Source: Planctopirus limnophila DSM 3776 (lineage in GTDB: Bacteria; Planctomycetota; Planctomycetia; Planctomycetales; Planctomycetaceae). From it: DNA of 32,000 nucleotides. Made by a program: the position numbers and the translations under genes. Where the stretch lies: NCBI RefSeq assembly GCF_000092105.1, contig NC_014148.1, forward strand, positions 2,040,001 through 2,072,000, given 5' to 3'. The notes under the pieces were generated by a model, which did no database searches, was not told where the DNA came from, and saw nothing but the letters and a program-made list of their open reading frames with translations. Positions 660-27,114 of the stretch are shown here, piece by piece. Every line of letters starts with the position of its first letter. Position 1 is the first letter of the stretch.

Positions 660-3600
660 TCAGGAATGCATCTCAGCAACTGGATTGTGATTACTCATCG
701 TGGGTAAAGCCTGTTCTTCCGAGGTGACCTGTGGGATTTCGAACCACCGGTAAATCGCTGGCAACACCAACAATGTCAGTGCCGTACACGTGACTAAACC
801 ACCGATCACGACAGTGGCTAAAGGCCTTTGAACTTCAGCTCCAGCGCTCCCAGAGACCGCCATGGGTACAAAGCCGAGTGCCCCGCAAATCGCGGTCATG
901 AATACAGGTCTCAATCGATCCATCGCCCCGGTCACCACTGCGGTTCTGGAATCCAGGCCATGCAGATACAGATGCCGGATATGTTCGATCAGCACGACAC
1001 CGTTCATCACGGCAATGCCAAACAAGGCGATGAAGCCCACGCCTGCCGAGATCGAAAATGGCATCCCCCGCAACCAGAGGGCAAAGATCCCTCCAGTCGC
1101 AGCGATAGGCACATTCAGGTAGATCAGCAGAGTCAGTCGCACAGATCCAAAGGTCACATAGAGCAGCGAGAAAATCAGAAAGAGCGCCACCGGTACGGCA
1201 ACTGCCAGACGCGCAGAAGCCTGCTGCAGATTCTCGAACTGCCCACCCCATTCGAGTGCATATCCGGGTGGCAGTTTGATCTGCTGATCGACAATCTTCT
1301 GAGCTTCGGCCACAAAGCCACCCAGATCTCGGCCGCGTACATTGCATTGAATGAGTAATCGGCGACGAATCGAATCTCGACTGATCTCTGAGGGCCCGTC
1401 TTCCAACCGGATATCAGCCAGTTGTGAGACAGGAATCTGCCGACCCTGAGGATCAGAAATTTTGAGTTCTTTCAGTTGATCAATATCCACCCGCCATTGA
1501 GGGGCCAGTCGCACCTGCATCGGGAATCGCTTCTGGCCCTCAAACACTTCTCCGACAGGGACGCCCCCCACGGAACTGATTGCAGCCAGCACATCGCTGG
1601 AGTTAATGCCGTAACGGGAAATGGCATCACGCCGAATGATGACTCGCAGATACGGCAATCCAGCAACCTGTTGAGCCTGAACATCGGCCGCGCCGGGAAC
1701 CTGACTGAGAACCCGGACAATTTTGTCTCCTTCGAGTTTAAGTGTGTTCAGATCGTCTCCAAACAGACTGAGACCGATATCGGATCGCACACCAGCCACC
1801 AGTTCCTGAACTCGCAGTTCAATCGGTTGAGTAAAGCTGAACGAGTTGCTGGGGACCGATTTTTCCAGAGCCTCCTGCATCTGTTCAATCAACGTGTTTT
1901 TCTCAATCGCTTCAGGCCACTCATGAACGGGTTTCATGCGCACGAAAACATCGGTCTGATGCACACCCATGGGGTCGTTGGCAATTTCCGGACGGCCGGT
2001 TTTCGAGATAACCGATTCCACCTGCGGGAACTGGAGCAACGTGCGCTCCATGGCTTTGGTCATTTCGATTGAAGCTTCTAAAGAGACGCTCGGAAGCCGT
2101 GTGGCTTGAATGGCGATATCGCCTTCATCCAGCTTGGGGACAAATTCGACGCCAAAGCCCAGCGAAACCAGCACGCTGGCCACAAACAAGAGAACTGCTC
2201 CACTGAGCATGAGCACGGGCCGGGCCATCGAAAAATGGAGCATCGGCTCATAAGCAGCTTTTAACCACCGGACAAGAAATGTTTCTTTCGAACTGATGTT
2301 TCGAGCCAGAAATAGTGAAGCCATCACAGGCATCACAGTCACAGCCAGGATCAATGCGCCGGTGAGTGCTGACATGAAGGTAAACGCCATGGGTCGGAAC
2401 ATCTTCCCCTCGACACCTTCCAGACTCAGGATGGGCAGGAAGACAATGATCACAATAATTCCCGCAAACAGAATCGGAGTTCCCACCTCCTTTGCCGATG
2501 CGACGAAGACTTCTTTGGGAACGCGTTTGCTCCCCGTGGTCTGCTGGTATCGGCTTGCTGTGCGGACAGCATTCTCGATCATCACCACGGCACCATCGAC
2601 AATCACACCGAAGTCAACGGCACCCAGGCTCATCAGGTTGGCCGAGACACCGGCGAGCGACATAGCGATCAGTGCAAACATGGCGGAGAGGGGAATTGCC
2701 GAGGCCACAATCAGGCCGGCGCGGACATCGCCCAGGAGCAGAAAGAGCATGATCACCACCAGCAGCACGCCCACGCCGATGTTCTCAGCAATCGTATGGA
2801 TCGTCTTTTCGACCAGCTCCGTCCGGTCGTAGAACGTGTCGATGTAGACACCTTCCGGCAATGTTTTTTCGATAGCATGAATCTTTTCTTTGACATCTTC
2901 GACAACCTGCCTGGAGTTGCCCCCCATGATCATCATGACCATGCCCGTCACCGCCTCACGGTTTCCATCACGAGTGACTGCGCCTTGTCTGAGCATGGGG
3001 GCGAATTGAACATTGGCAATATCGGAAATGCGAATTGCCGTTCCATCGCTGCGGGCTTCTAAGACAATCCGGCGAATATCATCCAGTGAGGTGACAAGTC
3101 CTTCGCCGCGGATCAGGCGCTGTTCGCTGCCATGAGCAATGTAGCCACCACCAGCATTGGCGTTGTTTTCTTCCAGAGCCTGGAAAACGCGACTCAGACT
3201 GATGCCATAATTCAGAAGTTTGTGGGGATCGACCTGAATCTCGTAAGTTTTCAGTTCACCGCCAAAAGTATTGACTTCGATCACGCCGGGAATGCTTCGA
3301 AGCTGAAAGGCAATTTGCCAGTCCAGAATGGTGCGAAGATCCATCAGGCTGTGATTGAAGCCCGGTTTGGAGCGAACTTCGAACTGATAGATTTCACTCA
3401 TGCCGGTGGCAATGGGCCCCATCTGCGGGTCACCCATTCCTGGTGGTATGTTCTGCCGGGCCTGGAGCAACCTTTCATTGACCAGATTGCGAGCCCAGTA
3501 GATATCCGTGCCATCCTGAAATGCAACGGTGACTGCCGAAAGACCAATGCGGCTGATCGAGCGAATTTCCTGAATGCGGGGCAGGCCGCTCATGGCGTTT

Positions 3601-3809
3601 TCCACAGGAAACGTAATGAACTGCTCGACCTCGACGGGCCCTAAAGCCGGTGAGACTGTCAGAATCTGTACCTGGACATTGGTCAGATCAGGGACGGCAT
3701 CAAGTGGTAGTCTTGATGCGGAGACAACACCTGCTCCGAACAAAATAATTGCCAGGAGCATGACGATGAAGCGATTTTCCATCGCCCAGGAAATGACATG
3801 GTTGACCAT
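660..3809 (-). CDS. czcA: Heavy-metal efflux RND pump, CusA/CzcA family (1049 aa)
   Basis: The ORF is full length. The N-terminus MVNHVISWAMENRFIVMLLAIILFGAGV...LPLDAVPDLTNVQVQI is typical of HME-RND pumps. The TM4 segment VDFGVIVDGAVVMIENAV carries the DFG-DGA-VEN signature associated with divalent-cation (Zn/Co/Cd/Ni type) HME-RND pumps. The length and the two large periplasmic loops fit the 12-TM RND layout. Confidence 0.95.
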   Translation of the reverse strand: MVNHVISWAMENRFIVMLLAIILFGAGVVSASRLPLDAVPDLTNVQVQILTVSPALGPVEVEQFITFPVENAMSGLPRIQEIRSISRIGLSAVTVAFQDGTDIYWARNLVNERLLQARQNIPPGMGDPQMGPIATGMSEIYQFEVRSKPGFNHSLMDLRTILDWQIAFQLRSIPGVIEVNTFGGELKTYEIQVDPHKLLNYGISLSRVFQALEENNANAGGGYIAHGSEQRLIRGEGLVTSLDDIRRIVLEARSDGTAIRISDIANVQFAPMLRQGAVTRDGNREAVTGMVMMIMGGNSRQVVEDVKEKIHAIEKTLPEGVYIDTFYDRTELVEKTIHTIAENIGVGVLLVVIMLFLLLGDVRAGLIVASAIPLSAMFALIAMSLAGVSANLMSLGAVDFGVIVDGAVVMIENAVRTASRYQQTTGSKRVPKEVFVASAKEVGTPILFAGIIVIIVFLPILSLEGVEGKMFRPMAFTFMSALTGALILAVTVMPVMASLFLARNISSKETFLVRWLKAAYEPMLHFSMARPVLMLSGAVLLFVASVLVSLGFGVEFVPKLDEGDIAIQATRLPSVSLEASIEMTKAMERTLLQFPQVESVISKTGRPEIANDPMGVHQTDVFVRMKPVHEWPEAIEKNTLIEQMQEALEKSVPSNSFSFTQPIELRVQELVAGVRSDIGLSLFGDDLNTLKLEGDKIVRVLSQVPGAADVQAQQVAGLPYLRVIIRRDAISRYGINSSDVLAAISSVGGVPVGEVFEGQKRFPMQVRLAPQWRVDIDQLKELKISDPQGRQIPVSQLADIRLEDGPSEISRDSIRRRLLIQCNVRGRDLGGFVAEAQKIVDQQIKLPPGYALEWGGQFENLQQASARLAVAVPVALFLIFSLLYVTFGSVRLTLLIYLNVPIAATGGIFALWLRGMPFSISAGVGFIALFGIAVMNGVVLIEHIRHLYLHGLDSRTAVVTGAMDRLRPVFMTAICGALGFVPMAVSGSAGAEVQRPLATVVIGGLVTCTALTLLVLPAIYRWFEIPQVTSEEQALPTMSNHNPVAEMHS

Positions 3810-3878
3810 CGAAAGATCCCCGAAGACTGAAGCCCGACTTTTGGCTTGTTGCGCATACTTTCAGATTCGTCGAAAAAA

Positions 3879-5417
3879 CTATTCGCCCAATAGATCAGCC
3901 AGCATCCGTGACTTCAGAGCAAAGCCACCATCAGTCACCACTTTGTCGCCTTCACCCAGGCCGGAGAGAATTTCAACCGAAGTAGTATTTCGACGGCCCG
4001 TTACCACAACGCGACGATCAAACTGATCAGCATCAGCATGAACGAAAACGAAAGTCTTGCCTTCGTAATCCTGCAGAGCAGCTAAAGGGACTTGCAGGAC
4101 TTCAGAAGAGCTGAGATTGGGCAGTTCGATACTCACGAACATGCCGGGCTTGAGAAGTCCTTCAGCGTTATCGGCCATGGCCCGCATTGAAAGAGTCCTG
4201 GTGCTTTCCTGCACGACATCACCCGTGTAGAAGATGGTGGCTTCGAACAATCGGCCTGGCCACGCTTCACTGCGAAGCCGAATCTTTTGATCCTTCAGTT
4301 GGGAGAGCATCGGGAGGTGTGATTCGTAGATATCTGCCGAGACCCACACCGTCGAAAGATCGGCGATCGTGAGAATTTGCCGTTCGGGCCCCACGCGCTC
4401 CATGAGCACGACATCTTTGGAAATCACCGTTCCATCAAAGGGGGCCACGACCGGGTAGTGAGCCAGATTCTCACCCATTTCGGAGGGATCAATCTCTTTC
4501 AGATCATGGTCGGTAAAGCCCAGGATTTTTAAATTCGTCTCGGCCACAGCGATCGTCGTCTGCAACTCTTTGACGGATTGTGTCGACAGCCGGGATGCCT
4601 GGATGACATCCTGCGACGTCTGTTCGAGCAGTGCCTGTAGGATGGCCTTTGTGGCTTTCACGTCGGTTTCGGCATCGAGAAGTTGCTTGGCGGGGACAGC
4701 ACCTGTACCGGAAAGTGGCGCCAGCCTTTGGGTTTGAGATTGAGCCCTGATCGCTGCCAGATAAGCATTCATGAGGGTTTGCCGATGCTCTCCCATGGTT
4801 CGTTCTTTGAGAGCCGTTTCAATATTTTCAATGGCGGCTTCGGAACGAATCATTTCAATGAGCGACAAGGTATTCTGGCTGATTTCCTGGGCCCAGCGAT
4901 CCCGAGCCATGGCAAATTCGAGTTTTAGGCGATCTTGAAAGAGCTGCAGTTTTCCTTGGCCGACTTCTTTACTTTGGACCACTACGAGAAGATCTCCCTG
5001 ACGAACTTTCTGGCCAAATCGCACTCGCACATCATCGACTCGCCCTTCGACGAGTGGAAAGACATGGGCCAGTTTGTCTTCGTTCAGTGAGATTTTCCCC
5101 GTGAGAGTGATGGCTTCATCAAGCGGGCCTTTCTGCACAGATCCAATCGCAATGCCAGCCGCCTTCCACATCTCCTGGGGGAAATCGACCTGTGAGATTT
5201 CTGGAGCTTCTCCAGCAGGCTCAGTGTTCGATTTGTGGGCAGGCAGATCGGTTTTCGCATGAGTCTCAGGCTTTTGTAAGACCCGGTTTCGTAACTCAGG
5301 AGATAGAACGAACGCAGCAATTCCCAGAGCAACGATGAGGACTGCCGTTATCGCCGCTGTTTTTTGTTTGAGCCAGACAGGCGTAGTCATGGAAAACATT
5401 CCCCAATAAAAATTCAC
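3879..5417 (-). CDS. Efflux RND periplasmic adaptor subunit (membrane fusion protein, CzcB/CusB-like, 512 aa)
   Basis: There is an N-terminal TM anchor (AAITAVLIVALGIAAFVL). The lipoyl/barrel motifs are VFPLVEGRVDDVRVRFGQKVRQGDLLVVVQS and VVAPFDGTVISKDVVLMERV, and the C-terminal block is VVVTGRRNTTSVEILSGLGEGDKVVTDGGFALKS. It sits immediately upstream of the pump. Confidence 0.9.
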   Translation of the reverse strand: MNFYWGMFSMTTPVWLKQKTAAITAVLIVALGIAAFVLSPELRNRVLQKPETHAKTDLPAHKSNTEPAGEAPEISQVDFPQEMWKAAGIAIGSVQKGPLDEAITLTGKISLNEDKLAHVFPLVEGRVDDVRVRFGQKVRQGDLLVVVQSKEVGQGKLQLFQDRLKLEFAMARDRWAQEISQNTLSLIEMIRSEAAIENIETALKERTMGEHRQTLMNAYLAAIRAQSQTQRLAPLSGTGAVPAKQLLDAETDVKATKAILQALLEQTSQDVIQASRLSTQSVKELQTTIAVAETNLKILGFTDHDLKEIDPSEMGENLAHYPVVAPFDGTVISKDVVLMERVGPERQILTIADLSTVWVSADIYESHLPMLSQLKDQKIRLRSEAWPGRLFEATIFYTGDVVQESTRTLSMRAMADNAEGLLKPGMFVSIELPNLSSSEVLQVPLAALQDYEGKTFVFVHADADQFDRRVVVTGRRNTTSVEILSGLGEGDKVVTDGGFALKSRMLADLLGE

Positions 5418-12329: not shown

Positions 12330-13438
12330 TATCCGTCATCTCTTTGTAGGGTGCAAGAAGTTCCGACGGATTGCACCAACTTTCTACTATCAATACAAAA
12401 ACCCGGCAGCCACTGTCACCAGTCACCGCCGGGCTCATTAAAGTATATTTACAATAAACAGATCTACGGCATCATCAGAGCGCAACTTGAGGGTCATCCA
12501 TCGAAGTCACCTTCGAGGGATCCATCTGTGGTCTTGAATGACAATCGCTCACCAACCTCTGAGAACCTGAACTGTCACTGGGGATTCTGAGATTACACCC
12601 AGTTAACACATTCAGGCGCGTCTGTCTCTCAAGTGAGCCGCATGATCCAAAGTGAACTTTGTGTCATTCAGCAGGCCAGAAAAAACGAACCAGAGAAAAC
12701 AAACCAGAGAACAGTGTCGGTCTCTCGAATTCGAGTTGAGAGCGCAAGATGGCTCTCAAACCGGAGGGCGTCGTTCAACCCCCTCCAGCGTTCCGGCTCC
12801 AAATCAGCCGCAGATCGAAAGACATCATCCGGATTGCAACTGGAATCACACATTCCACCCGCAAGGCGCGCCAGCGATGTCCTTCTACCCTAACCAGAGA
12901 TGTTGCGCCGGAAACTATGGCAGGGTGGCCCAGACGTGGCTTTGAACGTCTGGGTGACATTTGTCACAAGAAATTCACATCAACACATAGCATGATCGGG
13001 TTGAGTATTTGATTCACCTTACCCGCTTCCTCCGCGCGTGGTGAACTTGGCATTGCCGCTGGCATACAACCAGCAGCCATACATATAACAAATCCTGCCA
13101 CCTTTGATTTCTATGGTCGCACTCAGAATCGCCATCTTCGACACCCTGCGAGACTGATTCACTCCGGCCGGAAGTGTTGGTTTCTATCCAGTTGCCGTAG
13201 CCTGCGAGGTCGCCCCACAGATTGGTGGTGGAATCCTGTGACCGGCTGCGGTCACCGATGACCACTTCTTCCGTGAGAGAACCGGCTTTGGTCCGGGATC
13301 GCCCTGACTCTGGGTGATCTCGTAGTGCAGACCAAAACCAGAGGACGCCAGACCAAACGTCATCTCGGTATGGAGATCGTCAGCCTGGGATGTCCCTGAG
13401 CCCACGTTGGACGCCACTTGATGGGTGGTACCCAAAAA

Positions 13439-13496
13439 CCCCCTGTGGTGAAGCCACCCCGGTAGAAATCAGAATTTCAACCGGGGCCACCCTGCG
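13439..13496 (+). repeat. Hairpin repeat, type 2, copy D
   Basis: The sequence is CCCCCTGTGGTGAAGCCA-CCCCGGTAGAAAT-CAGA-ATTTCAACCGGGG-CCACCCTGCG. The stem has 13 positions with one mismatch. It is about 80% identical to 17693-17750. It lies 40 nt downstream of the stop of the minus-strand gene 13537..13935. Confidence 0.8.
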
Positions 13497-13536: not shown

Positions 13537-13935
13537 TCATCCTATGGACATATCAACTGACTTACAAACGAAATAATTATCAAGAGACCTGAAATCGGCG
13601 GGTACATTTCGAGCATCACATGCAGATCCAAAATCAATAAATACTTTTTCATCGTGAAACAAAAAAAAGACTTCGTCGCGAATATTCGCATAATCATAAT
13701 CTGCATTATATTTATACTTAATCTCTGTCGTCTCGTGCAGAGAAAGCTTAATTCTCTCGAAATTCTTGTTACGATGATTTTCACATAACATGAAAATCTC
13801 CACAAGCTGACCGGGCAGTGAATAGTCCTTGCTTACAATTGACACAGATATGATCTCCGCGTCATGAAACCCATGGTATGTATCCATGACATCATCAATA
13901 TTCGACTTTAATAATTCGATACACATATTAATCAA
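13537..13935 (-). CDS. Putative immunity protein for the upstream toxin (132 aa), very AT-rich
   Basis: It starts 5 nt after the stop of the 679-aa ORF on the same strand. My hand count over 13541-13660 gives about 34% G+C, against about 54% in the surroundings. The motif YHGFHDAEIISVSI recalls the FHDAE motif I associate with the Imm50 family; this is from memory and unverified. Confidence 0.65.
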   Translation of the reverse strand: MINMCIELLKSNIDDVMDTYHGFHDAEIISVSIVSKDYSLPGQLVEIFMLCENHRNKNFERIKLSLHETTEIKYKYNADYDYANIRDEVFFLFHDEKVFIDFGSACDARNVPADFRSLDNYFVCKSVDMSIG

Positions 13936-13940
13936 CCCGA

Positions 13941-15980
13941 TCAGTTTCTCTGTGGAACTGGAATTACACCCTGTGGCAACATCTGCCAGTCAGGCGGTAT
14001 CAGAGGGTCAGTCAGCTTTAGGTGAGGTGCGCCTGGTCCATGACCTGATCTAGGACTTCCAGGAATTGTAAACAAACGGCCCTCCCTATCCTTCCAGTCA
14101 ATATGGGCAATCGCCTCTCCTCTTTCATTGAAAATTGTAGTTTGTACAGCCCGACCGTCCCTTGACAGTCTTATATGAATAGAGTTCGGGTGAGCGCCTG
14201 TCAGCTTTGGATACTCAGTTCCAATAAACACTGGCCTATTTGAGGTGCTATTTTCCGGTATTTGTGTCAACTTCTTCCGACGCTTATTTAGTTCATATGT
14301 TTTATATTCTTCTCGTGAACTAAAAGTATACAGTCCATCAGACGACTTCCATTCAAGACGCCCGTCTCCAATAAGCTGGAAGTCTATGGTTTTCTCAGGA
14401 TCAGGTGTTCTTCGTTGATTTTCCGCACGCTGAAAGAAGCTTTTCAGCTTCTCACCTGCTGCCTTAGTCTTGGGCCCTGAAGGAACAACTGTCTTGATTT
14501 TTGCCAGAGTTGCTTCGGCTTTCAACCCGGCTGCAACTTTGTCTGCTCCGGCAGTGAGCAGCGAGAAGAACACGATCCCCAGAACCCGCCCGTGCACATA
14601 TGCTCGGGTGACAGGGTCATTGTTGTACTGCTCAAACCCCTGCATGATCGAGTCGGCAATTTTTTTAGCTTCCCTGGCGACGTCAATCAGTTCTTGGCTT
14701 AAAATCCCAGTTAGCTCGTCGAACTTTCCATCCCAAAGTTTCTTCTGGGTGTCTTCATCAAGACCCGTATATTCGTAATACAGGCTGCCATAATGCTGAA
14801 CAGTGGCTGTTGTCGAAGAGACAGTGTCATGGGCCAGAACCGTGTAGCCGATTGCCGGATGAATAACAAATAGCGAGCCGTAATAGAGAGCATCGGGTGC
14901 TGCTTCGGCAAGGCCATTCAGCGCTCCTCCTACGCTATCGACCCAGAACCCTTGCATAAATCCATCAAAATACGCTCCAGAAACCTCCAATGCACTGGGA
15001 GGCTCGTTAGGATTATTGTTAAGCGGTGGTGTGCCATTCTGGCTGAAAATATAGTCATATGCCGTGAGCAGTGAGAATCCATACCAGTCATTTCGCTCTT
15101 GAAGAATCTGCGGCAACTGCAGAGCGTTCATCCGGTAAACTTTGCCACCCACCGTCCGTGACAACCCACGCCCTTCGACATATGTGGCAATGTACTCCCC
15201 TTTCTTGTCATAAATCTGATAGATACTTCCACCCGTTTGAGTCACCTGGAAGAATTTGGCAATCCCTCGTAATCCGTTCTTCAGATCCGACGGCAACGTC
15301 TCGATATCGACCCCATTGGCAGTTTTTTCGCCCACGGATGTCGGCTTTTTGACTTCACCGACTTCTTGCAGCACGGGGACATCGACAGACGGTCTGTACG
15401 GGGCGCGGTCAATCAGTGTGCCCAGGTCGTGTTCGTTGCGATTGAGGAGATCGCGGATGTGGGGATTGCTTTGCTGTTCGGCCAATCTCTCGTACGCCCG
15501 ATCCATGGCATTCCGGCTGGCTTGACCCACTTCATTGCCGGGAGCCACTGGATTCGAGGGTGTGTAGGAGCCACCTTCTGAACCACTGGCGGACTGCTCT
15601 TCTTCCAGTCGGTTCTGATCGGCACTCTTGGCAGCGGGGGCTTCATCGGGAGGTGTCTGGTTGGCCTGGCTTTGGGCCTGTTGCTGGGCGGCGTAGGCTT
15701 GCTGCTGGATCGAATCATAGCTGGGGCCGCCGTATTCGCTGCGCTGCGGTGTTTCGTTTTCGGCAGGCTTGTGATCCCAGTAATCGATCCGCCAATCCCC
15801 CGTGCGGTCGTTCTCGTAGTATTTGTAATACTGTGTATCACTGGCCCAGCCTTCACTCGACAGGTGCCAGTCACCCAGATACGAGGGTTCATAGCCTCCC
15901 ATCGCGTTGGTGAAAGCTTGAGGGATGAACGGCAGGTTGTAATAATTGTACGGAGCCAGTGCCTGATTGATCAGGCTCAT
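13941..15980 (-). CDS. Polymorphic-toxin-like protein without RHS/YD core or signal peptide (679 aa)
   Basis: The N-terminus is aromatic-rich (YNYYNLPFIPQAF...YYKYYENDRTGDWRIDYWDH). A Q/A/S-rich linker follows, then a central region and a hydrophobic helix (VLGIVFFSLLTAGADKVAAGLKA). The last 110 aa or so are a small domain (VFIGTEYPKLTGAHPNSIHIRLSRDGRAVQTTIFNERGEAIAHIDWKDREGRLFTIPGSPRSGHGPGAPHLKL). G+C drops visibly in the 3' third. A small AT-rich gene follows directly. Confidence 0.7.
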   Translation of the reverse strand: MSLINQALAPYNYYNLPFIPQAFTNAMGGYEPSYLGDWHLSSEGWASDTQYYKYYENDRTGDWRIDYWDHKPAENETPQRSEYGGPSYDSIQQQAYAAQQQAQSQANQTPPDEAPAAKSADQNRLEEEQSASGSEGGSYTPSNPVAPGNEVGQASRNAMDRAYERLAEQQSNPHIRDLLNRNEHDLGTLIDRAPYRPSVDVPVLQEVGEVKKPTSVGEKTANGVDIETLPSDLKNGLRGIAKFFQVTQTGGSIYQIYDKKGEYIATYVEGRGLSRTVGGKVYRMNALQLPQILQERNDWYGFSLLTAYDYIFSQNGTPPLNNNPNEPPSALEVSGAYFDGFMQGFWVDSVGGALNGLAEAAPDALYYGSLFVIHPAIGYTVLAHDTVSSTTATVQHYGSLYYEYTGLDEDTQKKLWDGKFDELTGILSQELIDVAREAKKIADSIMQGFEQYNNDPVTRAYVHGRVLGIVFFSLLTAGADKVAAGLKAEATLAKIKTVVPSGPKTKAAGEKLKSFFQRAENQRRTPDPEKTIDFQLIGDGRLEWKSSDGLYTFSSREEYKTYELNKRRKKLTQIPENSTSNRPVFIGTEYPKLTGAHPNSIHIRLSRDGRAVQTTIFNERGEAIAHIDWKDREGRLFTIPGSPRSGHGPGAPHLKLTDPLIPPDWQMLPQGVIPVPQRN

Positions 15981-16060
15981 GGGATTCGAGAAGGTGACAT
16001 TCCATTCCGCCAGATCGTGAGCGGTACCACTTTCAAACGAACCGGCAAATTCACCTCAGG

Positions 16061-17224
16061 CTATGCAGGGACGCATTCCATAATCTGGGGGTCGATGAGG
16101 CGTGTCGGGATCACGCGCTGCAGGTGGAGACCGGAATCCGCACACAGCCGTGCGAACTCATCAAAAGTGCGCGAACAACCCCAGGTGGCGGCATACTGAT
16201 GCAGATCGAAAAGACTGCGGACAATCTCACCCGGTGCGACGTTATGATCCACCGAACCTTCGACAATCAGCAGTTTCGAGTGTGCCGACATCGCCCGTCG
16301 GATATTCGATAGAATCTTGCGGACACTCTCGTCATCCCAGTCGTGCAGGACATGCTTGATCGTATAGAGATCTCTGCCTGCGGGTACTTCCTCAAAAAAG
16401 TTCCCCACGAGATGTTCGGCTCGATCTGCCACACCTTTTCCGCAAAACATCTCGCCAGCAGCCGCATGAGTTTCCTGGCGATCATAAACCGCTCCAGAAA
16501 CATGCGGGGCTGCACGCAACATGGCCGCTAAAAAGGCACCGCGCCCGCCACCAATGTCGATGAGTGTCTTTACATTCGAGAAGTCGCAGCATTTCGCCAC
16601 TTCATCGACACAAAGTTCCGTCCAGCGTCCGCAGGCGACATCATGGAGTTCACAAGTCCCGGGATGTTCGGCCATCACTTCCCAGCAGGTCTTATGATAG
16701 ACGAACCGCGTCAGTGGTTCTCCAGCCCGGATAGCATCTGGTAATTGAGACATGACGGGAACCTGAATACGGTCGACCAGTTCGACCCAGGCAGCAAAAG
16801 GTTGCCTCCCCTGGCTTGTATATTCACGGCCTAGTGGGCCAATGGAATAGATGTCGTGAACGTCACGATCAATGAAATGCATGGCCAGGAGTGGTCGCAA
16901 GATATGTACTAAGGAGTGCGCATCAACCTGCAGAGTCTCTGCGAGTTCCTCCAGTGATTGCGGGCGTTTGAGCAGAGCTTCAAACCCTCCTAGTCGCACC
17001 ATGGCGGCAACTGCTCCAAACATGATCGGCAGTTGGGAGACCAGAAATGCCATACTTTCTGAGTTCCACCGCACAAAACGACGTACCACGCGGCGATGCA
17101 GCCAATCTCCGATCCGCTCCAGCCAGCTCCGCGAGACAGGCACGATTTCGTATGCTGGGACGTGGTTGAATTTCCGAAACAGTTCAGGCCGAACGACTGA
17201 AACCGGGGCATGAGTAGTCGCCAT
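16061..17224 (-). CDS. Class I SAM-dependent O-methyltransferase (family-2 type with N-terminal dimerisation/winged-helix region, 387 aa)
   Basis: The SAM-binding motif is LIDIGGGRGAFLAAMLRAAPHVSGAVYDRQ. The downstream blocks are DLYTIKHVLHDWDDE and LLIVEG. The N-terminal region LEELAETLQVDAHSLVHILRPLLAMHFI is typical of this family. Confidence 0.88.
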   Translation of the reverse strand: MATTHAPVSVVRPELFRKFNHVPAYEIVPVSRSWLERIGDWLHRRVVRRFVRWNSESMAFLVSQLPIMFGAVAAMVRLGGFEALLKRPQSLEELAETLQVDAHSLVHILRPLLAMHFIDRDVHDIYSIGPLGREYTSQGRQPFAAWVELVDRIQVPVMSQLPDAIRAGEPLTRFVYHKTCWEVMAEHPGTCELHDVACGRWTELCVDEVAKCCDFSNVKTLIDIGGGRGAFLAAMLRAAPHVSGAVYDRQETHAAAGEMFCGKGVADRAEHLVGNFFEEVPAGRDLYTIKHVLHDWDDESVRKILSNIRRAMSAHSKLLIVEGSVDHNVAPGEIVRSLFDLHQYAATWGCSRTFDEFARLCADSGLHLQRVIPTRLIDPQIMECVPA

Positions 17225-17611: not shown

Positions 17612-17692
17612 CTGACGGCACCAGGCAGCGAGCCAGTCTCGCTCCCGGTATGAAATCAGAGTGGCCTGAATGGTCGTTGACAGGGAATGAAA

Positions 17693-17750
17693 CCTCTTGT
17701 GGCTTTGCCATCCCGGTAGAAATCGGAATTTCAACCGAGGCCACCTTGCG
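17693..17750 (+). repeat. Hairpin repeat, type 2, copy E
   Basis: The sequence is CCTCTTGTGGCTTTGCCAT-CCCGGTAGAAAT-CGGA-ATTTCAACCGAGG-CCACCTTGCG. It lies about 90 nt downstream of the uvrA-fusion stop. It is the direct-orientation partner of 13439-13496. Confidence 0.8.
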
Positions 17751-17838: not shown

Positions 17839-20800
17839 TTAAATTCCACCCAGCTTCTTCAACAGCTTCAATAGCGTCGGTTTCTTCACCTGATCGGCTG
17901 TCACGAAGCTGAGTTTGATGACTTGTTCGCCATCCGAGTTGGTTTCAATCGCGGGGTCTTCACCCAGGTCGCGGATTTCTCCCAGGGTGATGGGTTTGCT
18001 GCCGGCGGTTCCTGCAGGGGCGAAGAGTTCAAGATCGAGGCTGCCAGTGCGTTTCGTAATGATGTTCGCCAGGACGCGGGGCTTCGCACCGGCTTTGGCG
18101 TCTGCCTTGGCAGGAACCACGCGGTACTTCACCAGCATCTTCTGCGTCCAGTCAACTTCCGCCGCCGGGAAGGTGGTCTCCATCAATTCAAACAGAGCCT
18201 CGGCAACGGCCGGTTCCCAGAGCACTTTCCCCTTCAAAAAACCTTTCCGCATGACGTGCCATTTGCGACCCAGTTTCTTCCAGGGCATCAGGTCTTCGGG
18301 ATTCGACGCCTCGGCTTTTTCGCCCAGCGAAAGATAGCTGGCCAGTGCCTCTTTGAAGAAGCTGGCGAAGGCAGGTGTGGCGACATCATCAGCCTTCGCC
18401 AGAGAGATCGTGACCTCCTGCAAGCCCCCCGCCATAGCCTTCACCCGGACTCGCTCGGCCCGGTTGTAAATGGGGAGTTCATCGAGATCGTCGATATCGA
18501 GAAGATCGAGAGATTCAGCGAGTTCCGTCTGGTCGAACGTCCCCTTCGCCACGCGGAACTTGGCCTGCAGCAGCCATTCATCGCCCGTCAGTGCATGAAT
18601 AAACCAGCTGGGAATCCCTTTCGATTTAGCTTCAATCACACTGCGATCATTCCAGACAACAGTGACGCCTGAATCCTCCTCTAACGGTTCAAAGATCGTT
18701 TCCAGAAGCGAGACAGGCCATTTCGCAGGACGACCCGAATTGGCCAGGTGATCGACCAGATGCCACTTGCGGCCATCGACCTCCCAGGGCATTTTGGCAC
18801 TCTTGCCGAGCGACTTGAGATCAAGATCATCCCGTCGGCGCGCGAGGGCGGCCTTCGCATCAAAGACTTCGCGGGCTCCCTTGCGGCTCGCTTCCAGAAC
18901 CGGGGCGAGACATTGAGCAGTCAACGAGACATGCTGCTGAGGATTTTTCTTCGATGGGTCATCATCTGGAACTTCCCCTTGAGCGATGCGGACGAGATCT
19001 TCAGGAGTTCCCGTCGCCACGATGTAGCCCCCTTCGCTGCCGGCAGCGGGGCCGAGATCAACAATCCAGTCGCAGGTTTTGATCACATCGAGGTTGTGTT
19101 CAATGACGACGACGGTATTCCCCGCATCGACCAGGCTTTGCAGGATCTTGAGCAGCTTGCGGATATCATCAAAATGGAGGCCTGTCGTTGGCTCATCCAG
19201 CAGGTAAAGGGTGCTGCCAGTACTGGGACGGGCGAGTTCAGCCGCGAGCTTGACGCGCTGGGCCTCGCCGCCGGAAAGGGTCGGCGCAGGCTGGCCGAGG
19301 GTCAGATAACCGAGACCAATCGCATCAAGAACTGCCAGCGGCCCGCGAATTTTGGGGAAGCTCTCAAACAACTTGACGGCTTCGGAAATGGGCATCTCAA
19401 GCACATCGGCAATGTTCTTCCCCTGGAACTTGACCGCCAGAGTTTCAGGATTGTAGCGGCGTCCGTGGCAGGTATCGCACTCGACCCAGAGATCGGGGAG
19501 GAAGTGCATTTCAATGAGTTTCTGGCCATTCCCTTCGCAGGTCTCGCAGCGACCACCAGCCCGGTTGAAGCTGAAGCGGGCGGGTCGATATCCGCGCACC
19601 TTTGATTCAGGAAGATGAGCAAACAGCTCACGAATGTGTTCGAAGACGCCTGTATAAGTCGCGGGGTTGGAGGCAGGGGTGTTTCCGAGTGGCTGCTGAT
19701 CGACAACAATCAACTTGCTGAGGTAATCCAGCCCGAGAAGTTCATCGTATGGCCCGGGCTGTTCGCTCGAACGATGCAGTTTGCGGGCAATGGCTTTGCC
19801 GAGAGTGTCGGCGATCAAGGAGCTTTTGCCACTTCCGGACACACCCGTGATGGCTGTCAGTGCCCCCAGAGGAATCCGCAAATCAACATTGCGAAGATTG
19901 TTCTGGCGGGCCCCAATCAACTCCAGCCAGAAGAGAGGCTTGCTTGCAGAAGCCTTGGTTGTGGCTGCCACCTGAGCCTTGGCCTTCCCTTTCGTCGCAG
20001 CACCTGATTTCGCCCGATCAACTGGTGCCTGGCTTCTGCCAAACCTCGCAGGGACACGGCGTTCGGTCGGAACGAGAATATCTTCCTTAAGAGAGAGAAA
20101 TCTGCCCGTGAGCGAGTCGTCGCAGTGTTCGATCTCGTGTGGTGTTCCTTCCGCTGTGACAAGGCCACCCAACCTGCCAGAACCGGGGCCGAAATCGTAC
20201 AATCGATCGGCGGCTGCGAGAACTTCGCGATCATGCTCGACGAGCACCACAGTGTTGCCAAGATCGCGCAGCTTCTTCAGTGCCTGCAGCAGACGCCCGT
20301 TATCGCTGGGATGCAGCCCGATGGTCGGTTCATCGAGAACATACAGCACACCTGTCAACGCCCGGCCCAACTGACCCGCTAATCGAATCCGCTGGCTTTC
20401 TCCGCCGGATAGCGTCGGAAGTGTGCGGCTCAAGGTGAGGTAATGCAGACCGACATCAACCAGAAAATCAAGGCGACCAGCCCCTTCTTCCAGCAGGTCT
20501 CCCGCGATCTTCTGTTGGGTTTTGTTGAGTGTAAGTCCATGCAGAAACTCTTGAGCTTTATTGAGTGGCAATTCGCACAACTGCTGCAAAGTCTTCCCTT
20601 GCAGGCGCACGGCAGAGGCATCTTCTCTCAAGCGGCTGCCACTGCATGAAGAGCAGGGAACTTCACCAATCAAATCGAACAGCGATTGGCGGAATGAGTA
20701 CGAAACGCGTGAGGCTTCTTCGAGAGCCGGGTACAGCCCTTTGAACTGGAAGCGGTATTTGACGGCTTGATCGGCCGTGGATGATTTCTTCGATTTCGCT

Positions 20801-23800
20801 GCTGCTTTGGTGCTCGACTTTTTGGCCGCTGCGGGCTGAGCCACCTGGTAAACCGTGAACCACTGCTCGCCAGCCCCGAAGAGAACCAGTCGCTGCTCAG
20901 CCGGTTCGAGCTGATTAAATGGCGTGTCGAGCGAAAGGCCGACTCCCCGGCTCAGGGCGTCCAACAGTTCGAACATTGCGGGAGATTGCCGAGGGTCTGG
21001 CCAGGCCGAAATGGCTCCTTCGCGTAAAGTTCGTGTGGGATCACCAATGAGAGCCGCAAGGTTCGTGCCCTGCTGAGTGCCCAGACCTTCACAGCTTTCG
21101 CACCATCCCAAGGGACTGTTGAACGAGAAGTTGTGTGGTGCCAATGTCTCAAAACTTCTGCCGCATTGCGAGCAGGCACGAAACAGACTGAAGGGCTGAA
21201 CTTTCCACGAGTTCTCCGGCTTGTCGTCATCGACGAAGGCGACACGAATCACGCCTTTGCCCTGATCAAAGGCTGCCTCGACAGAATCAGCCAGACGGCG
21301 GCGGCTGCCCGAGGCAATCGTGACGCGATCAATGACAATTTCGACGACATGCTTTCGCCGGCGGTCGATTTCGGGAACTTCTTCCAGTCGATAGGTGGTG
21401 CCGTCCACACGTACCCGGCTGAAGCCCTGTTCTTTCAGCCGTTCCCACACTTTGGCGTACTGCTGGCCAACGGGAACTTCCTGCGGTGCCAGAACCAGCA
21501 GTCTGGTGCCTTCCGGCTTGGCCATGAGGAGATCGATCACATCGTCGGTGGTTTGCGATTCCACCGCGATGCGACAGTCGGGGCAATGTTGCGTTCCCAG
21601 GCGGGCATAGAGGACACGCAGATAATCGTAAATTTCCGTCGTGGTGCCGACCGTCGAGCGCGGCGTGTGGCCGACCGTCTTCTGCTCAATCGCAATCGAA
21701 GGCTGAAGACCGTGAATATGCTCGACTTTGGGCTTGGGCATCTGACCAAGAAACTGCCGGGCATACGACGAAAGGGACTCGACGTATCGCCGCTGGCCTT
21801 CCGCGTAGAGCGTATCCATGGCGAGTGACGTTTTGCCGGAACCACTGGGGCCACAGAAGACACTCATCTGATCGCGAGGGATATCGAGACTGATTTTCTG
21901 CAGGTTGTGCTGGGAGGCCCCGCGAATGACGATGTTGGTCTGTGCTTCACGGTCTTGCTGCTTGAGTGGCAAAGCTGCTTGCCAGCGGGAAGGTGAAGCG
22001 ACTTTTGTCTCAGGAGGAAAAGTTCGAGCCACACTTTTTTGTGGCATCTCAACCACGTGATCTGCCGTGCTTTTGCGTCTTTTCTTCGTTCCCTGCCCCT
22101 TGCCAGTGGAGGTGGCTGCGGACCCCAGTGAAACGGGCTGAGATATTGATCGACCGCTCGCCTCAAGGACTCTGGCCAGAAAGCGACCCGTGTATGAGGC
22201 CTCACATTGGGCCACCATTTCTGGTGTCCCCTGTGCGATAATCCTGCCACCACCTTTGCCACCTTCGGGCCCCAGATCGATCACCCAGTCGGCCGTCTTG
22301 ATGACATCAAGATTATGCTCCACGACAATGACGGTATTCCCGGCATCCACAAAGCCATGCAACACCCGCAGCAGGTGGGCGATATCAACGAAGTGCAGGC
22401 CAGTTGTCGGTTCGTCGAGAATGTAGACGGTTTTGCCAGTGCTGCGTTTGCCAAGTTCTTTCGCGAGTTTAATCCGCTGAGCTTCACCACCAGAGAGGGT
22501 AGGAGAGGGCTGCCCCAGCTTGATGTAGTCGAGGCCCACATCGTGCAAAGTCTGCAGCAGATTTTTGATCTTGGGGAGGTTTTCAAAATGTTCAAGTGCC
22601 GTCTGAACATCCATATCGAGGACTTCAGCAATGTTCTTACCCTTGAAACGCACCTCCAGCGTCTCTTTATTAAATCGGCGTCCCTGGCAGACCGGGCAGG
22701 TCACCCAGATATCGGCAAGAAAGTCCATTTCAAGCTTGTTCGAACCATGCCCTTCGCAGGCCTCGCAACGACCGCCAGGGACGTTAAAACTGAAGCGTCC
22801 CGGCTTAAACCCGCGGGTTTTAGAATCGGGAAGTTGTGTGTAAAGATCACGAATCAGGTCGAAGAGTTTGACATAGGTGGTAGGGTTCGACCGGGGTGTA
22901 CGACCAATCGGTGACTGATCAATATCGATGGCCTTATCGACCAATGCGAGATTGTCAAAACTCTGATGAGCACCGGGAGCACCTTCACCAAGATTGACTT
23001 CGCGATTGAGCAGCGGCCACAGAATATCGTTAATCAGCGAGCTCTTCCCTGAACCGGAAACACCGGTCACGCAGATGAACTTCCCCAGTGGAAACTCGAC
23101 ATCGACATTTTGCAGGTTGTGATGCGTGCAACCTTGTATCGAGATGGATGTTCCTATTCCTGAGCGACGTGTTTCGCGGATTTCGATCTGCTTGCGGCCG
23201 GAGAGATAAGCTCCCGTTTCACTTTCTTCATTCGCCAGAAGTGCCTCAAGACTCCCTTCATGAACAACTTTTCCACCACGAACACCGGGGCCGGGGCCAA
23301 AGTCGATAATGTGATCGGCAGCCTTCATCGTTTCATCGTCATGCTCCACCACGATCACGGTATTACCCTGATCGCGAAGATCCTGCAGGCTCCCCAGCAG
23401 CATTTCGTTATCGCGAGGGTGCAGGCCAATCGATGGTTCATCGAGAATATAAACCACACCCACAAGGCCACAGCCAATCTGCCCAGCCAGACGAATCCGC
23501 TGACTTTCTCCACCACTGAGCGTCGGTGCCGTCCGATCCAGCGCGAGGTAATCGAGACCGCAGCGCAAAAGAAAACCCAGGCGGCCACGAATCTCTTTAA
23601 GAACTTCTTCAGCGATATATTGCGAAGTCGGATCCAGATCGAGCTGTTCAAAAAACTCGAAAGCTTCACCCACACTGAGATGGCAAACCCCAGGAAGTGA
23701 CAGACGCTGTTTTTTCGCCTGGGAAGCCGCCGATGAGGAACCGCTGCGTGCTATCGCCGGCGTAGTCATCTCCAATGCTTGGCTGGAGATAAAATAGTTG

Positions 23801-25143
23801 CAGGCCTGAGCGTTGAGTCGCGAACCGTGGCAAGTGCTGCACCCCACGACTTCCATATACTTTTCAAGCTGCCTGCGGCGCATCGGGTTTTTGGCTTTAC
23901 GGTACTCTTCGAGCAGTTCGCGGACATAGCCTGTGTACTTCCCACCATGCTTCCACACTCCGCCCGAGTGCTTGAAACTGTACGTCACATGCTGATTGCC
24001 CAGCCCATCCAGGAAGAGATCGCGCGCCCCCTGGGGCAGTTCATTCCACGGGGTTTTCAGGAACTCACCGGGCTTGAGGCTCAGTGTTTTTTCAATCGCC
24101 GCAGCCACGCCATCAATGAGATGCCTGCGCCAACGGCCCAGCTTGGAAAGTTTACCTGAAAGTGCGAGTGCTCCCTTCTGGATAGAAAGGGATTCATCGG
24201 GAATGAGCCGATCAAGTAAAAAATCGTGCCGCATCCCGAGACCGTTGCAGTCGGCACACATCCCTTGAGGGCTGTTGAAACTGAAAAGTTGCGGCGAGGG
24301 AGGATCGTAACTGATACCGCAATGGGTGCAGGCATAAGCCGTGGCAAAAAACTGTTCGCTCGGATTCTCCTGAGACGGCGAATCGTCTTCACTCTGAATA
24401 GCGGCAGAGAGGAATTCTTCGGGAGAATCCTGCAAAACAATGAGTTGCCCATTCGCCAGTTTGAGCGCATTTTCTACAGCTTCGGCCACACGCTGGCGAG
24501 TCGATTTCCCGGCCACCAGGCGGTCAATCACCACATCAATCGTGTGCTTCATCTGCTTATCAAGCTGCAGACTTTCGCTCAGCGAAATGAATTTGCCATC
24601 AACCCTGGCGCGGAGATAACCCTGCTTGAGAAGATCAACGAAAAGATCCTTAAACTCACCCTTCTGACGCTGAATGAGTGGTGCCAGGATCTGAAACTTT
24701 GTTCCGGCAGGTAAAATGAGAATCTGCTCGACGATGTTCTCAGGAGACTGGGAAGTGATCGGGCGATGGCATTGGTGGCATTCGGCTTGGCCAACCCGGG
24801 CAAACAGCACTCGCAGGTAATCGTATATCTCGGTGATCGTACCCACGGTACTGCGCGGATTTCGACCAGCCGTTTTCTGTTGAATCGAGATCGAAGGAGC
24901 CAGCCCGGTGATCGAATCGACATCCGGCTTGGGCATCGATCCCAGGAATTGCCTCGCGTACGTCGAGAGGGATTCGATGTACCGCCGTTGACCTTCGGCG
25001 TAGAGCGTATCAAAGGCGAGAGAGCTCTTGCCCGAGCCACTGACGCCCGTCATAACAATCAGTTTGTTCTTGGGCAAAACCAGGCTGACGTCACGCAGAT
25101 TATGTTCTCGGGCACCACGAATCGTGATTTCAGATCTGGTCAT
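17839..25143 (-). CDS. uvrA: Tandem UvrA-UvrA fusion protein with extra C-terminal region (2434 aa, four ABC ATPase modules)
   Basis: Unit 1 is residues 1-995 (22159..25143). It begins [16 protein letters not shown]...[36 protein letters not shown]. It carries [12 protein letters not shown] with [11 protein letters not shown], then [27 protein letters not shown] and [11 protein letters not shown]. Unit 2 is residues 1069-2085 (18889..21939). It begins [16 protein letters not shown]...[36 protein letters not shown]. It carries [12 protein letters not shown] with [11 protein letters not shown], then [27 protein letters not shown] and [11 protein letters not shown]. Both units keep the CxxC zinc modules and the segments at the positions of the UvrB-binding and insertion domains. 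The reading frame is uninterrupted. Confidence 0.95.
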
Positions 25144-25851: not shown

Positions 25852-27114
25852 ATGGACTCTGCAGGTACTGCCCGTGATGCGTTATCCGCTGCGATGGTTG
25901 AACGCGTACAGGGATTGCGTCTACCGCCACCCCCTGCCAATGCGGGAATCAACGCTTCCACCTCGATTGCCTGGCTGATTGCCACACTATCGATTTCTGG
26001 TTTCGTGTTTATCTTCCTGTTCGCCTTTGTCTACCAGGTGGGTGGCCCTCGCGGCAGCAATGCCCCAGCCTCGACGACCGTCGCTGGTGATGGGAAGACC
26101 ACAACTGCGGGGTCCAAAAAGGATCCCTCAGCTCCTGCAAACAGTGATGCCCGTCCCGTCGACGCTGCTGCTGTCGATCCGGAAGCGATGGTGCTCTTGT
26201 CACAGGGTTATATCATCCCGGAACAGCAGATTCTGGTCAGCCCGCAGGTGAGTGGCCGGATTATTGAATTGAACGTCAAGGAAGGAACTCGCGTGGAAAA
26301 AGGATTCGTCCTCGCGAAACTGGAACCCACGGAATATCGGGCTGATTATGAAGGAGCCAGAGCCAACGTGGCTGCTGCTGAAGCCAGGCTGGCTGAGTTG
26401 CGTGAAGGAAACCGGCCCGAGGAAATCGCTCAAGCTCAGGCCGAACTGGGCGAAGCCAAAGCGACATTAAAACAGCTGGAACAAACCTTCCGCCGCAATG
26501 CCGAGCTCTACGGACAAAAGATTCTCAACAAGCAGGAGTTTGAAGATTCGGAGTCACTGCTCATGGCCCAGGCCCAGCGCGTGCTCAAGCTGGAAGCGAT
26601 GGTCAAGCTGGCCGAAGATGGCTTCCGTAAAGAGCGGAAACTGGAAGGTGAAGCGAACCTGCATAAAGCGATGGCAGAACTGGAAAGAGCCAAGTGGCGC
26701 CTGGATAACTGCACGATCGCGGCACCAATCTCCGGCACGATTCTGAAGAAAAATGCCGAAGAGGGGAACATTGTGAACCCCGTAGCTTTCAATGGCTCTT
26801 TCAGTTTGTGCGACCTGGCCGATCTTTCGAAGCTCGAAGTCGATCTGACCATTCAGGAACGGGATATTTCGAAGGTTTTCCCGGGCCAGAAATGCAAAGT
26901 CCGTTCGGAAGCTTTTCCCGATCGCGCTTACGACGGTGTGGTCTCACGATTGATGCCCATTGCAGACAGAGCCAAAGGGGCCATTCCTGTTCGTGTGGCG
27001 ATCAGTGTCCCAGCCGATGAAGAGGGCATGTACCTGAAGCCCGAAATGAGTGCCCAGGTGACGTTCTATGCCGGAAAAGCAGAAACAAAACCTGCCACGA
27101 TGAGTGCCGAATAA
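25852..27114 (+). CDS. HlyD/MacA-type periplasmic adaptor (membrane fusion protein, 420 aa) with no transporter partner in the window
   Basis: There is an N-terminal TM anchor (IAWLIATLSISGFVFIFLFAFVY). The lipoyl motif is ILVSPQVSGRIIELNVKEGTRVEKGFVLAKLE. A long coiled coil follows (ANVAAAEARLAELREGNRPEEIAQAQAELGEAKATLKQLE). The remaining blocks are TIAAPISGTILKKNAEEGNIV and the beta-barrel tail. Confidence 0.9.
   Translation: MDSAGTARDALSAAMVERVQGLRLPPPPANAGINASTSIAWLIATLSISGFVFIFLFAFVYQVGGPRGSNAPASTTVAGDGKTTTAGSKKDPSAPANSDARPVDAAAVDPEAMVLLSQGYIIPEQQILVSPQVSGRIIELNVKEGTRVEKGFVLAKLEPTEYRADYEGARANVAAAEARLAELREGNRPEEIAQAQAELGEAKATLKQLEQTFRRNAELYGQKILNKQEFEDSESLLMAQAQRVLKLEAMVKLAEDGFRKERKLEGEANLHKAMAELERAKWRLDNCTIAAPISGTILKKNAEEGNIVNPVAFNGSFSLCDLADLSKLEVDLTIQERDISKVFPGQKCKVRSEAFPDRAYDGVVSRLMPIADRAKGAIPVRVAISVPADEEGMYLKPEMSAQVTFYAGKAETKPATMSAE

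Follow-up and report, generated by a model that had tools for sequence, protein, structure and literature searches.

Polymorphic toxins are normally classed by their N-terminal trafficking domain. The systems described by Zhang et al. (2012, PMC3482391), especially those of the PT-HINT class, combine a conserved N-terminus with a variable C-terminal tip, carry the immunity gene immediately downstream of the toxin gene, and show mosaic breakpoints and a low-G+C cassette that can be swapped. Among their tips, Ntox24 (PF15529) is described as all-beta with conserved Y, H, and H positions and is a predicted metal-independent endoRNase, for which Imm50 (PF15594) and Imm53 are listed as partners; Imm50 was reported there from planctomycetes, and one Salmonella Imm50 protein has 129 residues (PMC10469887). 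A second point of comparison is provided by the orphan modules of Rhs and CdiA loci, which are 5′-truncated copies that retain part of the constant region, with their own immunity gene next to them and with repeated pieces of the toxin gene flanking the cassettes. Here, we analyzed a 32,000-nt stretch of the Planctopirus limnophila DSM 3776 genome (contig NC_014148.1, positions 2,040,001–2,072,000; hereafter, the window, to whose positions all coordinates refer) that contains the gene pair Plim_1593/Plim_1592. In all likelihood, this pair is one allele of a Planctopirus-specific polymorphic toxin locus, in which the toxin copy is probably attenuated or displaced and the immunity gene is intact.

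The toxin gene, Plim_1593 (13941..15980, minus strand; protein P0001, 100% match), is an open reading frame (ORF) of 679 residues with an ATG start, and it is 5′-truncated relative to its family. The predicted cognate immunity gene, Plim_1592 (13537..13935, minus strand), encodes 132 residues from a TTG at 13935 or 129 residues from an ATG at 13926. An initial annotation, made from the sequence alone, had described a toxin-immunity-like pair here, and its 679-residue ORF and every peptide string that it quoted were located. The 132-residue gene that it placed 5 nt after the toxin stop codon holds for the TTG, but the ATG annotated in GenBank, 14 nt past that stop, agrees better with the N-termini of homologues. 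Upstream of Plim_1593 lie an O-methyltransferase gene (Methyltransf_2, E 2.5e-32) and then a uvrA-like gene.

Base composition sets the 3′ part of the toxin gene and its partner apart. The G+C content is 57% in the DNA encoding residues 1–230, 40% in that encoding residues 521–579, 48.5% in that encoding residues 580–679 (G+C at third codon positions [GC3] 0.35), and 35.6% in Plim_1592, compared with 58.6% in the DNA just downstream and 53% in the window as a whole. Based on both G+C and GC3, the low-G+C block spans ~14420 to 13537, and the same dip across tip and immunity gene is seen in four of five other loci. The small gene is therefore low in G+C as first proposed, at 35.6% rather than the ~34% counted by hand, and the drop that had been placed at 13941–14650 exists but is narrower, beginning near 14420. 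The further proposal that tip and immunity gene are swapped as a unit agrees with this cassette and with the different cassettes found at the same locus in relatives (see below).

The toxin tip occupies residues 580–679 (13944..14243, minus strand). An exhaustive HMMER comparison of Plim_1593 with 1.84 billion representative proteins returned 75 matches. Besides the query, only P0002 and P0005 matched the N-terminal part of Plim_1593; the remaining 72 of the 75 matches cover residues ~546–678 alone. All 72 carry the match at their extreme C-terminus, typically followed by ≤8 residues, and their front parts include PT-HINT (10 proteins), RHS repeats (6), PAAR (3), and PT-TG (2). Extreme C-terminal placement behind varied fronts is the signature of a polymorphic-toxin tip, and the suggestion that the small His-containing C-terminal domain is such a tip is borne out by its Ntox24-like homologues, which always stand last in RHS, PAAR, or PT-HINT proteins. 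The only Pfam family matched by the isolated tips is Ntox24 (24 of 73 at E ≤ 0.01, best 3e-6). An AlphaFold2 model of the tip, based on the 73-sequence alignment, has a mean predicted local distance difference test score (pLDDT) of 96.1 and is all-beta, with five strands and two short helical turns, in keeping with Zhang et al. (2012), who characterize Ntox24 as “all-beta; Y, H, H”. Considering the predicted fold, the His and Tyr positions conserved in the alignment, and the RHS and HINT carriers among its homologues, the Plim_1593 tip appears to be a divergent relative of Ntox24 and not a new style of domain. This confident model has no solved structural relative: Foldseek found no neighbor in PDB (best E 0.43), and PDB sequence searches with the tip and with the tip profile gave no match. 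Weak Foldseek matches of the tip model in BFVD are to siphovirus phage proteins, one of them named a minor capsid protein, which may agree with the MuF association noted by Zhang et al.

Within this alignment the Plim_1593 tip differs at several of the most conserved positions. The column of residue 635 holds His in 72 of 73 tips and Arg in Plim_1593 only (codon CGT at 14076–14078, one transition from CAT), and the near-invariant Tyr positions 602 and 617 are replaced by His and Phe, respectively. In contrast, H626, D628, H647, and H653 are kept. Residues 626 and 635 sit on consecutive strands of the tip model and may form the active site; the Arg at 635 is possibly disabling. The tip belongs to a short subgroup (Plim_1593 and P0008–P0011) that lacks the “HG..APSGHG” insert.

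The gene that follows the tip is conserved together with it. The closest tip relative, P0008 (64% identity; PT-HINT followed by the tip), has as its next gene a 133-residue homologue of Plim_1592, and genes of this family stand directly downstream of Ntox24-like tips in all nine other loci examined. Genes of 119–142 residues follow the tip homologues of L008, L009, L010, L011, L012, L014, and L015, and the distant carriers with such a small downstream gene include the RHS proteins P0016 and P0020, the PAAR-RHS protein P0025, P0017, the RHS-HINT protein P0077, an RHS protein on a Rahnella plasmid, and an RHS fragment from Caballeronia. The small proteins of L008–L012 align with Plim_1592, that of Rahnella (L014) is tied to the family by hhalign (probability 97%, E 8e-11), and that of Caballeronia (L015) by a shared motif only, read by eye; near and far immunity subfamilies were likewise connected by hhalign (probability 96%, E 2.5e-9 over 122 columns). 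The pairing of an Ntox24-like tip with a ~129-residue protein, kept across phyla, provides comparative evidence for an immunity function, in line with the role first suggested for the downstream gene, and Plim_1592 is thus the predicted cognate immunity protein of the tip.

Its assignment to Imm50, proposed from an FHDAE motif, did not hold up. Eight family members (the P0006, P0007, L005, L008, L009, L010, L011, and L012 proteins) matched no Pfam family, Imm50 included, at E ≤ 10, a PDB sequence search with the immunity profile gave no match, and the RefSeq plasmid relatives, reached by plasmid tblastn, are entered as “hypothetical protein” only, none being annotated as Imm50. A distant relation to Imm50 is possible, since Imm50 also partners Ntox24 and the Salmonella Imm50 protein has the same size of 129 residues. 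The result is an apparently unannotated immunity family, closely linked with Ntox24-like tips across lineages that range from Planctomycetes to Proteobacteria. The closest relative of Plim_1592 is P0007 (43% identity), which stands alone beside the 3′ end of proS in three Logan contigs (L002 933–1319, L003 1156–1542, L004 222–608) and resembles an orphan immunity gene; it also adjoins a gene for a 168-residue Cys-rich membrane protein, with no toxin gene beside it.

At its other end, Plim_1593 belongs to a small and lineage-specific family. Among 5.8 billion proteins, its N-terminal region is shared with only four others, all from Planctopirus: P0002 of P. hydrillae (858 residues, PT-HINT plus an unknown end), P0003 of P. 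ephydatiae (734 residues, AHH nuclease, E 1e-12), P0004 of P. ephydatiae (1013 residues, PT-HINT plus an unknown end), and P0005, which is Plim_1444 (997 residues, a weak PT-HINT plus another end). Relatives that match the N-terminal part but carry different tips, as expected if the C-terminus is polymorphic, therefore exist. The four relatives are nearly identical to Plim_1593 at its start and diverge from it at about residues 63, 125, 200, and 230, i.e., they form a mosaic. The constant region (residues 1–230; 15291..15980, minus strand) consists of a small aromatic beta domain (residues 38–85) and a helical linker rich in Q, A, and E.

Plim_1593 does not preserve the beginning of this family. 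All four relatives begin ahead of its Met1: P0002 and P0005 have 47 additional residues there, and P0003 and P0004 have ~195. In the window, an in-frame remnant (15981..16058, minus strand) reads from a TGA at 16056–16058 through 25 codons, GEFAGSFESGTAHDLAEWNVTFSNP, to the ATG, and these codons match the N-terminal extensions of the relatives. The homology ends at ~16049–16052, ~12 nt from the TAG (16061–16063) of the upstream O-methyltransferase gene: in tblastn comparisons, residue 172 of P0004 and residue 24 of P0002 both fall at position 16052, and a DNA alignment with the P. hydrillae copy of the locus (L001) and a metagenome contig (L013) supports this truncation junction. Homology that runs past the ATG to a stop codon near the neighboring gene identifies Plim_1593 as a 5′-truncated copy, which lacks ~170 residues present in the P. 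ephydatiae relatives. The initial annotation had taken the front end as an intact N-terminus, which it is not, and the missing delivery domain is in part an artifact of the truncation.

None of the known delivery types was recognized in what is left. The absence of a signal peptide, noted from the outset, agrees with the lack of a hydrophobic N-terminal core (over residues 1–40, no 19-residue Kyte-Doolittle mean exceeds 0.36; SignalP was not run), and the absence of a trafficking domain and of any match to a housekeeping family is consistent with empty searches of Plim_1593 against Pfam, NCBIfam, and, by Foldseek, PDB. Neither Plim_1593 nor Plim_1592 gave a significant match in Pfam, NCBIfam, PHROGs, or PADLOC; weak matches to Arrestin_C, DUF7244, and Ntox33 fell below threshold and were dismissed. 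Residues 1–520 had no match among PDB sequences, and the full-length model had none in PDB below E 0.4 with Foldseek. Pfam domains for trafficking were likewise absent from P0002–P0005, and inspection of the longer heads of P0003 and P0004 revealed no signal peptide, nor did these heads contain a Pfam domain. Unlike the eight trafficking types in PMC3482391, the locus therefore presents no recognizable signal peptide, FilH/TPS, PAAR/RHS, WXG/LXG, PVC, TcdB/TcaC, MuF, or PrsW feature. It shares with polymorphic toxins the PT-HINT and AHH domains of its paralogues, whereas Plim_1593 itself lacks a HINT domain and is missing its 5′ end.

Comparison of the locus between strains shows where the cassette begins and ends. 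The DNA for residues 1–230 is 94.5% identical to that of P. hydrillae, and codons 1–230 differ from L001 by 38 synonymous and 2 non-synonymous changes (synonymous divergence [dS] 0.30, non-synonymous divergence [dN] 0.004, dN/dS 0.012). Beyond codon 230, divergence from L001 leaps to saturation (dN about 0.7), which marks a sharp recombination boundary at ~15290. On the opposite side, a hairpin element of ~60 nt (13436–13496, minus strand; core GGTGGCCCCGGTTGAAATTCTGATTTCTACCGGGGTGGC; folding energy −38.8 kcal/mol, z −3.3) follows directly after the immunity gene, and beyond it lies a pseudogene fragment of a toxin 5′ end (13131..13417, minus strand) that corresponds to the first ~86–96 codons of a full-length family toxin (VASNVGSGTSQADDL...SESVSQGVEDG). 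The hairpin occupies the same position in L001 (3073–3135) and L013, and hairpin and fragment together follow the immunity gene in both of these contigs at ~90% identity. They are the conserved right-hand flank of a variable cassette of which the constant region is the left flank. L013 and L001 share 98.8% identity as far as the HINT domain. Past that point L013 has another tip, followed by an Imm42 immunity gene (E 1e-9), and from the hairpin onward it again resembles both L001 and the window, at about 90% identity. Three alleles thus hold three cassettes between the same two flanks, which shows the polymorphism directly and makes this locus a clear natural case of one cassette being replaced by another while both flanks are conserved.

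The hairpin matches no tRNA and no Rfam family; a second copy lies just after the uvrA-like gene (17690–17750, minus strand), and the element may be a terminator or a member of an intergenic repeat family. The toxin 5′ fragment, which is frameshifted by the loss of 1 nt from a G run (13304/13305), differs from L001 by 7 synonymous and 15 non-synonymous changes (dN/dS 0.69); this nearly neutral ratio indicates a remnant and not a gene. Because of the frameshift and this ratio, we rejected the idea that the fragment is a small gene that supplies the missing head in trans.

Between the constant region and the cassette, Plim_1593 carries two variable regions and a linker. Variable region 1 (residues 231–330; 14991..15290, minus strand) is modeled as a beta domain flanked by helices (pLDDT 90–96) and is shared with P0002 only, in highly diverged form (dN 0.67). 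Variable region 2 (residues 331–520; 14421..14990, minus strand) is a helical pre-toxin domain that is common, at low identity, to P0002, P0004, and P0005, where it stands directly before PT-HINT. Within it lies a hydrophobic helix (residues 466–484, Kyte-Doolittle 1.66) whose T[AE]G motif is kept by all four aligned proteins. A loose likeness of this helix to pre-toxin TG modules had been suggested; it is not supported beyond the conserved motif within the hydrophobic helix, and PT-TG (PF14449) was not matched by Plim_1593 at E ≤ 1 or by P0002, P0004, and P0005 at E ≤ 0.01. The Lys/Arg-rich linker (residues 521–579; 14244..14420, minus strand; 40% G+C) forms the start of the low-G+C cassette and stands where the paralogues have their PT-HINT domain (PF07591), which was found in P0002, P0004, P0008, and L013 and weakly in P0005, and was not found in Plim_1593. 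The full-length AlphaFold2 model (mean pLDDT 67) is consistent with this division: the aromatic-rich segment (residues 38–85) is a confident small beta domain (pLDDT 92–95), the Q/A/E-rich linker forms moderately confident helices, a confident beta-plus-helix domain covers residues 220–300, residues 330–520 are mostly helical at lower confidence, and the tip is again confident.

By analogy with polymorphic toxins, we infer that the constant region would direct export or presentation, that the pre-toxin helical region (with HINT in the paralogues) would assist release or entry, that the tip would be the lethal part with a predicted RNase activity, and that Plim_1592 would protect the producer and its kin by blocking the tip. 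Linker, tip, and immunity gene probably arrived as one low-G+C cassette, and the first ~170 codons were lost at the junction with the upstream O-methyltransferase gene. With a missing head, no HINT domain, and H635R, the Plim_1593 copy is probably attenuated or displaced. The pair is an ordinary polymorphic toxin-immunity cassette in a copy that has been truncated.

Several observations weigh against parts of this explanation. The Plim_1593 tip itself reaches no Pfam threshold and has no match to the Ntox24 model at E ≤ 10; the link to that family runs via homologues. No measurement of toxicity, RNase activity, or neutralization was found in the searchable literature for any member of the tip and immunity families. 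No secretion signal or apparatus was identified for the toxin, in particular no marker of type V, VI, or VII secretion systems (T5SS, T6SS, T7SS) and no Sec-type signal. The related contigs end inside the repeated 5′ region (genome and metagenome scans, one locus each). The Arg at 635 could be tolerated. Finally, the open 2-kb ORF with its conserved Met and constrained constant region may be fully functional despite the truncation.

This last point leads to the view that the annotated 679-residue protein is a complete, active toxin whose aromatic-rich N-terminus and Q/A linker form a self-sufficient, undescribed export module. The constant region, its linker of seemingly low complexity included, experiences very strong purifying selection at the protein level (dN/dS 0.012), it contains the confident beta domain of residues 38–85, it is unmatched in Pfam, NCBIfam, PHROGs, PADLOC, and PDB, and it is common to toxins with different tips; in addition, Met1 is conserved in all relatives, the ORF is intact, and a survey of three planctomycetes including P. 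limnophila found many T6SS-related genes only in Rhodopirellula baltica (PMC5394234). The constraint is consistent with a conserved interaction, such as one with an export apparatus, and argues against a long-dead pseudogene. However, gene conversion from intact paralogues is a possible alternative source of the same constraint, homology carries on past the ATG as far as a stop codon, ending ~12 nt from the neighboring gene, and the ~195 residues ahead of this Met in P0003 and P0004 indicate that the native module is longer; moreover, export would be a supposition, by analogy, for every member of the family. We therefore regard a complete export module in the annotated protein as unlikely, although the open frame and the low dN/dS keep full function of Plim_1593 plausible. 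At the opposite extreme, the toxin gene could be a displaced, non-functional relic, at most a recombination reservoir, with only the immunity gene maintained against toxin-making neighbors. The 5′ truncation, the unique H635R together with Y602H and Y617F, all at tip positions of the highest conservation, the lack of PT-HINT, the adjacent frameshifted fragment that evolves nearly neutrally, and the stand-alone immunity homologue P0007, which has no toxin beside it in other contigs, all point in this direction. Yet the 2,040-nt frame is still open, and 2 non-synonymous differences in 230 codons at dS 0.30 contrast with the tens that a pseudogene would show. The likeness to Rhs/CdiA orphans is also incomplete: Plim_1593 is preceded by methyltransferase and uvrA-like genes and not by a full-length “main” gene, it still has a start codon and a long ORF under constraint, and the repeated piece downstream of Plim_1592 is the 5′ end of the gene and not a core-plus-tip fragment. 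A dead toxin gene is accordingly somewhat unlikely.

An intracellular toxin-antitoxin module for addiction or abortive infection, and not an exported weapon, would account for the lack of an export signal, and Zhang et al. (2012, PMC3482391) also record Ntox24 domains from apparent type II toxin-antitoxin systems. Such a module is very improbable here, given that toxin-antitoxin modules are not built with a 580-residue N-terminal region like the one that Plim_1593 has in common with PT-HINT and AHH polymorphic toxins, that all of the closest tip relatives are on RHS, PAAR, or HINT proteins, and that PADLOC gave no match. A polymorphic toxin locus with a truncated toxin copy and an intact immunity gene remains the preferred explanation of Plim_1593/Plim_1592.

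The cell envelope and secretion repertoire of the host are poorly understood, and the locus contributes a lineage-specific constant region that is tightly conserved, common to toxins with unrelated tips, and unlike the known trafficking types. The undescribed export module suggested in the initial annotation is not supported for the N-terminus of Plim_1593, which results from truncation, but is possible for the constant region of the family. A possible candidate for a trafficking module is the ~170-residue Ser/Thr/Gly/aromatic-rich head of P0003 and P0004 joined to residues 1–230 of Plim_1593 with their aromatic beta domain. That it serves an undescribed, Sec-independent route of export or delivery in Planctomycetes is a tentative proposal that we consider improbable on present evidence; if true, it would offer a handle on how Planctomycetes deliver proteins to competitors.

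Pieces of toxin genes are also found elsewhere in Planctopirus. Many short ORFs of 107–172 residues in assemblies of this genus (P0080–P0085, L007 6544–6891, L001 3151–3510, and L013 3233–3571) begin with the first ~65–115 residues of the toxin family and continue into unrelated sequence. Most of them break after “GWSESxS”, with the exceptions of P0080, which reaches ~115 residues, and P0085, which ends at ~65, and the related contigs often end in the repeat. A site-specific, shufflon-like join at the recurrent “GWSESVS” breakpoint was considered and set aside, the evidence being too thin, with just 2–3 independent junctions and with the ~85 codons in between absent from the window. One of the contigs with a toxin 5′ fragment, L007, also encodes a Cas4-Cas1 fusion and Cas2 (573–2731), and a 216-residue HEAT-repeat protein is encoded just upstream of its toxin 5′ fragment. 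HEAT repeats are a known immunity type. In the window, the ~0.8 kb between the toxin 5′ fragment and a DUF1579 gene (12330–13130) holds short overlapping ORFs only and shows homology to neither L001 nor L013; it could be the remains of a former toxin or immunity cassette. The start of Plim_1592 (13847–13903) has three 57-nt BLASTN matches within the P. hydrillae toxin gene (L001 239–295, 950–1006, and 1173–1229) with identical statistics (80.7% identity, E 8e-9), which are perhaps an artifact.

Other genes of the window include an AcrB-type resistance-nodulation-division (RND) pump with an HlyD-type membrane-fusion partner (660–5417, minus strand) and a second HlyD-family gene (25852–27114, plus strand), and nothing ties these to the toxin locus. 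The uvrA-like region upstream contains an unusual fused ORF of 2434 residues (17839–25143, minus strand), in which two tandem UvrA-like units, with the ATP-binding cassette (ABC)/UvrA motifs occurring twice (near the start and near residue ~1040), are followed by a C-terminal extension of ~400 residues.

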